A stretch of DNA of 64,000 nucleotides, taken from NCBI GenBank assembly GCA_016432485.1, contig CP066691.1, positions 740,944-804,943 on the forward strand, given 5' to 3'. The translations under genes and the position numbers were made by a program. This document shows, piece by piece, positions 31,887 to 32,011 of the stretch (positions are counted from its first letter, which is position 1; the number at the start of each line of letters is the position of its first letter). Below the pieces are notes generated by a model. The model searched no databases, was not told the origin of the DNA, and saw only the letters and a list, made by a program, of their open reading frames with translations. The stretch is from Candidatus Niyogibacteria bacterium (GTDB lineage: Bacteria > Patescibacteriota > Minisyncoccia > HO2-45-28).

Positions 31887-31920
31887 GGGTTAAGCTATTG
31901 AACCATTGCGACGGGGTTGA

Positions 31921-31983
31921 CCCACACACCCACTTTGCCATTTTTAATTTGCGCCTTGCGCTATGGCAAAGTGGGTGTGTGGG
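31921..31983. repeat. 63-bp element: perfect 21-bp inverted repeat (cccacacacccactttgccat) with 21-bp spacer, flanked by ggttga/gggttga
   Basis: lies between an 18-nt upstream motif and the -35 box of promoter P1; removal restores the spacing seen in homologous promoter P4. Confidence 0.7.
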
Positions 31984-32011
31984 TTGACAAAGCATGTTGC
32001 TGGAGTATAAT
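31984..32011 (+). promoter_or_regulatory. consensus sigma-70 promoter P1: TTGACA-16-TATAAT
   Basis: exact -35 and -10 hexamers; ~100 nt upstream of GC-rich ORF 32114. Confidence 0.6.

Follow-up and report, generated by a model that had tools for sequence, protein, structure and literature searches.

Two promoters preceded by one 18-mer

We analysed a 64-kb window (the whole stretch of DNA under study, 64,000 nucleotides) from Candidatus Niyogibacteria, in which two predicted promoters, P1 and P4, are each preceded by the same 18-nt sequence. P1 is located between pheS, identified by Pfam, and gyrB. It is included in a 1,105-bp segment (31831–32935) that a 47-nt direct repeat flanks. The features of this region, apart from a palindrome that is treated below, are these:

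31784–31830, + strand: 47-nt direct repeat, left copy, which forms the true 3′ end of pheS with its stop codon
31853–31888, + strand: terminator-type hairpin after pheS, found by inverted-repeat search, with a second copy at 44229–44265 (40 nt, 85%)
31892–31909, + strand: the 18-mer, a putative solo remnant of the left terminal inverted repeat (IRL; sequence comparison, IS481-like)
31984–32011, + strand: promoter P1 (TTGACA 31984–31989, 16-nt spacer, TATAAT 32006–32011), 12/12 match to consensus
32034–32113, + strand: structured 5′ UTR, conserved in homologous cassettes of other CPR genomes (also L012, L013 and L014; L numbers denote fetched loci)
32114–32788, + strand: cassette ORF of 224 aa, 60.6% GC against about 42–45% in neighbouring host genes (pheS 42%)
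32889–32935, + strand: right copy of the 47-nt repeat, with 3 mismatches, all synonymous third positions and all GC-richer

The 1.1-kb GC-rich segment around P1 looks like an integrative gene cassette without an integrase of its own. Its 5′ UTR contains a nested hairpin, with another hairpin immediately ahead of the ribosome-binding site, and five of the pairs carry compensatory changes among four sequences. The leader matches no family in Rfam and is possibly a new cis-regulatory leader of the cassette family. The 224-aa ORF, driven by P1, has no Pfam or NCBIfam match and its homologues are CPR proteins. In Nomurabacteria (L018–L021) the same family is the variable protein of a diversity-generating retroelement (DGR) with a 113-nt pair of variable region and template repeat (VR/TR), in which 13 of 14 mismatches fall on TR adenines and a reverse transcriptase gene lies just downstream (in L018, VR/TR pair at 4550–4662 and 5055–5167, reverse transcriptase at 5556–6551). 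The window ORF has a homologous C terminus (…VFFRNS). No template repeat or reverse transcriptase was found within the 64-kb window, hence the gene would be an orphan or remote DGR target.

Other repeats and motifs were noticed as well. At L012 (about 1755–2790) a homologous cassette is likewise flanked by a duplication, roughly 24 nt long, that copies the 3′ end of the cobO-like gene upstream. The two terminator hairpins (31853–31888 and 44229–44265) have identical 14-bp stems (AAACGGCTCAACGG/CCGTTGAGCCGTTT) with different loops; the second comes after an ORF at 43731–44189, and together they form a dispersed repeat family. A GGTTCTTTAA-like motif occurs a few bases 3′ of the −10 element in P1 and P2 (32012–32034 and 33090–33112), in the promoters of homologous cassettes (L012–L018) and at some IS-adjacent promoters (L040, L062), and may be an element of the initial transcribed region or leader that is conserved in CPR. 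Downstream of secE, the two copies of a 40-nt repeat (37188–37227 and 37400–37439, 98% identical, with an ATG at the end of each copy) enclose a 212-bp insert that is GC-rich in its core, an insertion with a long target duplication in the style of the one at pheS. Elsewhere in the window are a 34-nt repeat, CTATAAGCTAAAAGCTAAAAGCTATAAGCTGTTG, at 21177–21210, 59735–59768 and 61358–61391 (79–100% identical), a 178-nt direct repeat at 23506–23683 and 26018–26195 (88%), and an 82-nt repeat at 16669–16750 and 22440–22521 (84%) upstream of ORFs with prepilin-like N termini.

P4 drives a 140-aa ORF that is flanked on both sides by TrwB-like ATPase genes:

54313–54339, + strand: GGTGTTGCG followed by the 18-mer, a putative solo IRL remnant (IRL comparison)
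54346–54373, + strand: promoter P4 (TTGACG 54346–54351, 16-nt spacer, TATGAT 54368–54373), beginning 6 nt past the 18-mer
54436–54858, + strand: P4-driven ORF of 140 aa, 42.6% GC, host-like, without a family match

The 18-mer, AAGCTATTGAACCATTGC, occurs exactly at 31892–31909 and 54322–54339. An earlier note on this DNA had placed the first copy correctly and the second one base off; it had also judged chance recurrence unlikely and put the P4 −35 hexamer 6 nt past the 18-mer, both of which our analysis bears out. None of 100 dinucleotide shuffles of the sequence gave as many matches as the exact pair. When up to 3 mismatches are allowed, the window holds one further match, at 11470, apparently a chance one.

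The IS481-like parent element

Scanning the exact 18-mer against species-representative genomes returned 43 loci. About a dozen are chance matches in long ORFs of unrelated bacteria, and the remainder are in Patescibacteria-type MAGs, some of them labelled Gammaproteobacteria or Bdellovibrionales by their submitters. In several MAGs the 18-mer lies exactly 36–37 nt from a contig end on multiple contigs, a fixed distance that indicates a multi-copy repeat. A technical or rRNA origin of these contig-end matches was rejected, as a transposase gene and inverted repeats bound the repeat. Upstream of the 18-mer the aligned sites share a conserved (A/G)GTGNT(T/G)CC, and 30–60 nt away is a divergent gene whose product starts MAYT(K/T)NPxLPxVR. 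Downstream, sequences diverge directly after …CCATTGCG; copies within one genome are identical through …CCATTGCG and then run into different promoters. When all fetched loci were searched for diverged 18-mers, only further copies of the known IS emerged.

The divergent gene encodes a transposase (293 aa in L036) with the Pfam domains rve, rve_3 and HTH_23/28/32 and a faint LZ_Tnp_IS481 match. Its best NCBIfam family is IS481, matched over the full model length at 179–194 bits. These scores are under the curated equivalog cut-off of 224, and we therefore call the element IS481-like. More than 7,500 homologues (E ≤ 1e-30) were recovered, mostly on contigs of ~940 bp and many of 939–941 bp. Six complete copies (L036, L088, L094, L102, L103 and L104) are 940–944 bp long and contain one transposase of 292–293 aa, with an IRL that reads CG(C/T)AATGGTTCAATAGCTTGG… and an IRR, …AAGGT(A/C)TTGA…, at the transposase stop codon. 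The two ends align over ~25–29 nt as imperfect terminal inverted repeats, and their inner 6–9 nt (GGAACC, GGAATC, CGCAAC, GCATCAC) vary among elements and agree within each element. Direct repeats of 3–5 bp flank L088 (TCT), L094 (CCCCC) and L102 (GGT); L036 has no clear target duplication, and the two other complete copies are without one flank. An element of about 1 kb with imperfect terminal inverted repeats and a transposase combining one HTH with an rve DDE domain is what characterizes IS481. Matching IRL and IRR ends around the transposase in all six copies identify the 18-mer, by sequence comparison, as the outer 18 bases of the IRL of this 940–944-bp element, which is very abundant in Patescibacteria/CPR.

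At L047 (JBBTSD010000004.1), where the 18-mer is at 59–76 of the locus on the − strand, it is preceded by GCAATGGTTC. The arrangement GCAATGGTTC-N9-GAACCATTGC forms a 10-bp perfect inverted repeat with the outer IRL, and may represent two abutted IS ends or a hairpin remnant.

The copies in the window are fragments of such ends. At P1 the IS tip is directed right, toward the promoter, and 31910 (G) is the usual final IS base; likeness to the IS extends over the 18-mer and this terminal G only, the inner IRL bases not being conserved. The P4 remnant comprises 27 nt of IRL, 26 of which agree with the IRL of L094, a complete IS. When the sequences upstream of P1 and P4 were aligned to IS left ends with lenient gaps, nothing informative emerged past the 27-nt IRL. 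A tblastn search with the family transposase found no transposase in the 64-kb window, which makes both 18-mer copies solo IRL remnants, and no second terminal repeat adjoins either copy in the window as it would in an intact IS. A MITE reading of the P4 remnant was tried by seeking an IRR-like end upstream; only an 8-mer, GTTCAATA, was found, and it is not convincing. Compared with MITEs and solo IS ends, the window copies are transposase-less IS ends with no recognisable second end, and hence remnants rather than MITEs.

Position of the insertion-sequence end relative to the −35 hexamer

We next consider where these ends lie. The junction tally covered 51 sites with the 18-mer, G or A being allowed at position 17, of which 38 are in an IS/CPR context. 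TTGAC starts 5–7 nt past the 18-mer in 29 of these 38 (6 nt, n=14; 7 nt, n=14; 5 nt, n=1), and a −10-like hexamer follows 16–18 nt beyond TTGAC in 20 of the 29. Four more sites have near-misses in the same place (TTGCAT, TTGTCA, TGGACA and GTGAC). By comparison, none of 13 chance matches in coding regions has TTGAC at that spacing, and the background frequency of TTGAC in the same DNA is 0.3%. The search for further copies that the earlier note had proposed bore fruit for the 18-mer, which at these 29 sites holds a fixed position before TTGAC. The promoters themselves differ from site to site, more than 25 of them being unrelated.

The orientation of the IS is also constant. The transposase gene is divergent from the neighbouring gene, the IRL tip is 5–6 bp upstream of TTGAC and, on the IRR side, the IS adjoins the preceding gene at its end. 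In the three copies with flanking repeats, a putative 3–5-bp target duplication (TCT, CCCCC, GGT) separates the IS tip from the −35. TTGAC at 5–7 nt in most IS-context sites, before different promoters, points to insertion in one orientation just upstream of the −35. No empty target sites were recovered, so the argument for −35 targeting is one of position statistics. On these statistics, insertion of the IS481-like element appears to be orientation-specific, with a set distance between its end and the −35 hexamer downstream. The HTH of the transposase, which presumably binds TTGAAC in the IRL, might also read the similar TTGAC in the target.

A constant phase between the 18-mer and the −35 could instead mean that the 18-mer is a host regulatory site (for an activator or repressor, or UP-like, at −42 to −59), with solo copies kept by selection for control by an HTH protein and with the palindrome uncoupling P1 from that control. 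Besides the fixed phase at 29 sites, this reading would accommodate the solo 18-mers without transposase beside promoters in several genomes (P1 and P4 of the window, L040, L046 and L064). It would also suit the Yanofskybacteria loci L044 and L064, where the 18-mer lies beside orthologous yraN-like genes with diverged flanks. Insertion specificity, however, explains the fixed spacing equally, and no shared function was found among the genes downstream of the 18-mer–promoter junctions. Moreover, the sites were collected via the 18-mer itself, such that its conservation cannot be judged from them and the exact-match search biases any argument from conservation. We regard regulation by the host as an unlikely explanation of the 18-mer. 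L044 shares with P1 the 18-mer together with the GACGGGG that follows it.

The same tally bears on the relationship between the two window promoters. The earlier note had held that two of the cassettes share one promoter lineage. P1 and P4 might in principle derive from one ancestral promoter, by duplication or as a 'mobile promoter', with the 18-mer as a conserved upstream element; the exact 18-mer at similar distances from TTGAC (7 and 6 nt), the 16-nt spacers of both and a loosely similar GCAA(A/C)GGT(A/T)G past the −10 would all be in keeping with this. Yet identity stops at the IS tip, the 18-mer being followed by GACGGGG at P1 and by AAGAGC at P4. The spacers agree in 6 of 16 positions by hand comparison, the genes driven by the two promoters are unrelated, and the same 18-mer, an IS terminal repeat, precedes more than 25 different promoters in other genomes. 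A common ancestor is hardly credible on this evidence, and the claim of a shared lineage is not supported.

The palindrome at P1 and the history of the two promoters

Between the 18-mer and the −35 of P1 lie three further features:

31914–31921, + strand: first copy of the direct repeat GGGTTGAC (putative target duplication), holding a displaced −35-like TTGAC(C) at 31917–31922
31920–31984, no strand assigned: perfect palindromic insertion, with arms at 31920–31941 and 31963–31984 and a spacer at 31942–31962
31981–31988, + strand: second copy of GGGTTGAC, which would regenerate a working −35

The palindrome consists of 22-nt arms and a 21-nt spacer, 65 bp in total. The earlier note had recognized the perfect inverted repeat and its 21-nt spacer but gave arms of 21 bp and a length of 63 bp; its target duplication is likewise supported, though as an 8-bp direct repeat rather than one of 6–7 bp. 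Each arm contains two ACCCAC hexamers 8 nt apart, the spacer holds a small GCGC-CTT-GCGC hairpin and the right arm spans −36 to −57 of P1. Folded as single-stranded DNA, the palindrome has an energy of −30.8 kcal/mol (z = −7.45 against shuffles). It and the P1 region are identical in independent Logan assemblies of the same population (L001–L003) and so are not an assembly artefact. The palindrome is upstream of the −35 and therefore outside the P1 transcript. Nor does it resemble an intrinsic terminator: it is absent from the terminator scan and has no T-run; past the stem, the + strand reads TGACAAAGC and the − strand CAACCCCGTC. In Rfam the palindrome gave only generic hairpin (miRNA-model) matches far under the gathering scores. 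An integron attC site was rejected, as the perfect palindrome has no bulged bases and stands in front of a promoter, not at the 3′ end of a cassette. A relationship of the arms to the IS terminal repeats was also rejected; they have in common a CTTTGC core only, which we judged chance.

The direct repeat has a period of 67 bp and overlaps the ends of the arms. Symmetric readings of the target duplication are TG for a 65-bp element, TTGA for 63 bp and GTTGAC for 61 bp. The displaced TTGACC (31917) is 7 nt past the 18-mer and has no −10 at the right distance, TTGACA following 67 bp further on. Deletion of 31922–31988 (67 bp) yields the 18-mer, GACGGGG, TTGACA, N16 and TATAAT, that is, a canonical IS/−35 junction, which indicates that the palindrome inserted secondarily. 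The earlier note had foreseen both points, namely that a unit had inserted between the 18-mer and the −35 with a target duplication, and that a motif-N6-TTGAC arrangement is recovered on its removal; such an arrangement (N6/7) is seen at 29 independent sites in other genomes. At the level of sequence, this strongly supports a secondary insertion with target duplication.

In its terminal inverted repeats, small size, non-coding nature and flanking target duplication the palindrome is MITE-like in anatomy; a MITE-like transposition mechanism and the order of events are inferred. What it lacks are dispersed copies and a related autonomous element, which were sought in the window, the fetched loci, IMG/VR, JGI metagenomes and plasmids. 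Neither the window nor the fetched loci contain it a second time. In IMG/VR viral contigs, matches to the palindrome arm and to the 18-mer were confined to coding regions and attributable to chance. The 21-nt arm had 0 matches in JGI metagenomes, where the inner-arm pattern with any spacer retrieved unrelated hairpins only, and a plasmid collection held no match. Upstream of the homologous cassettes L012–L018 there is neither palindrome nor 18-mer. The proposed search for further copies was therefore fruitless for the palindrome.

A single copy in all searches would suit a one-off remnant better than a proliferating MITE. The palindrome could be what remained when a larger transposon, which had long perfect terminal repeats and had entered the −35, underwent nearly precise excision, its fused ends keeping the target duplication. 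Nearly precise excision of Tn10 provides a precedent, and the anatomy, with perfectly inverted ends around a short centre of unrelated sequence and with the 8-bp direct repeat, fits equally. However, no element with ends of the palindrome type (ACCCACACACCCACTTTGCCAT) was found anywhere, and an insertion that upset the spacing between IS remnant and −35 would have needed to be tolerated. Excision of this kind is a possible but rather doubtful origin. Even less favoured is an origin other than mobile insertion, whether as an acquired operator or cruciform for a dimeric regulator of P1 or as an inverted duplication made by template switching in replication. The perfect symmetry, the paired ACCCAC hexamers, an arm at −36 to −57 and the very stable fold are all compatible with it. 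The 8-bp direct repeat and the restored canonical junction point instead to insertion with target duplication, a template switch leaves the direct repeat unexplained, half-sites of 22 bp set 21 bp apart are unusual for an operator, and homologous cassettes are without the palindrome. We consider this origin very unlikely.

Taken together, the 18-mer as the IRL of a −35-adjacent IS481-like element, independent hits at P1 and P4 and a later palindrome insertion at P1 make up an account that we hold to be probable. P1 and P4 would be unrelated promoters, each hit separately by the element, whose position just upstream of the −35 would spare the promoter and flanking genes in compact genomes. The transposase-bearing body would later have been lost, presumably by deletion; the IRLs that are present and the transposase that is absent are what is observed. 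At P1 a second event would have followed, in which a foldback element of 59–65 bp with perfect 22-bp inverted repeats entered the −35 hexamer, with duplication of GGGTTGAC. From the distal GGGTTGAC copy would have come a new consensus −35, correctly spaced from the −10. P1 would thus have stayed intact because the target duplication includes the −35, while the IS remnant moved 67 bp upstream, from about −42/−59 to about −109/−126. Hence the junction can apparently be hit again and the promoter survive, since the target duplication rebuilds the −35.

For annotation, this means that identical strings before two promoters would be IS scars and not evidence of a shared promoter or regulon. IS remnants and a small foldback insertion are fairly ordinary; of more interest is the pattern in which the IS family inserts. 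A broader proposal is that a large CPR family of IS481-like elements homes to sigma-70 −35 hexamers in one orientation, its left end 5–6 bp upstream, as a 'safe harbour' that spares promoters and genes. Solo left ends would then persist as fixed-phase upstream modules, maybe bound by an HTH protein, with the P1 palindrome as a second, independent miniature element in the −35. We give this proposal about an even chance. If the targeting is true, it would provide a clear example, in bacteria, of a DDE element that homes to promoters and would explain the persistence of the IS in very compact episymbiont genomes. Moreover, IS ends would then mark real promoters in organisms with almost no transcription data, and a transposase DNA-binding domain that reads a −35-like motif would be suggested. 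A full-text search of the literature found no description of an IS that targets the −35, IS481 members included.

Comparison with known systems brings out what is particular to these sequences. The palindrome shares with IS-derived MITEs its terminal inverted repeats, small size, lack of coding capacity and flanking direct repeat, whereas it occurs once only across all the collections searched and the arms show no relationship to the IS481-like repeats. 'Mobile promoters' are reportedly (Matus-Garcia et al. 2012) homologous promoter segments upstream of unrelated genes. The same short sequence upstream of unrelated genes and an association with transposases recall them, but here the hexamers and spacers are not homologous between sites and only the adjacent IS end is shared.

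The parent element resembles the IS481 family in its single ORF with an N-terminal HTH and an rve DDE domain, length of ~1 kb, putative short target duplications, imperfect terminal repeats of ~25–28 bp and a stop codon in or beside the IRR. IS481 ends are usually TGT. The ends here begin CG(C/T)AAT instead, and the strict position and orientation relative to the −35 hexamer are a further difference. For the insertion pattern itself, elements of the IS1202 group would be the nearest analogue, as these land 5 bp from the XerC side of dif/pdif sites (PMC10132070). The transposase family is another one, and the motif here is a −35 hexamer and not a recombinase site, but both show one orientation, a fixed distance of a few bp to a short functional motif and many independent insertions.
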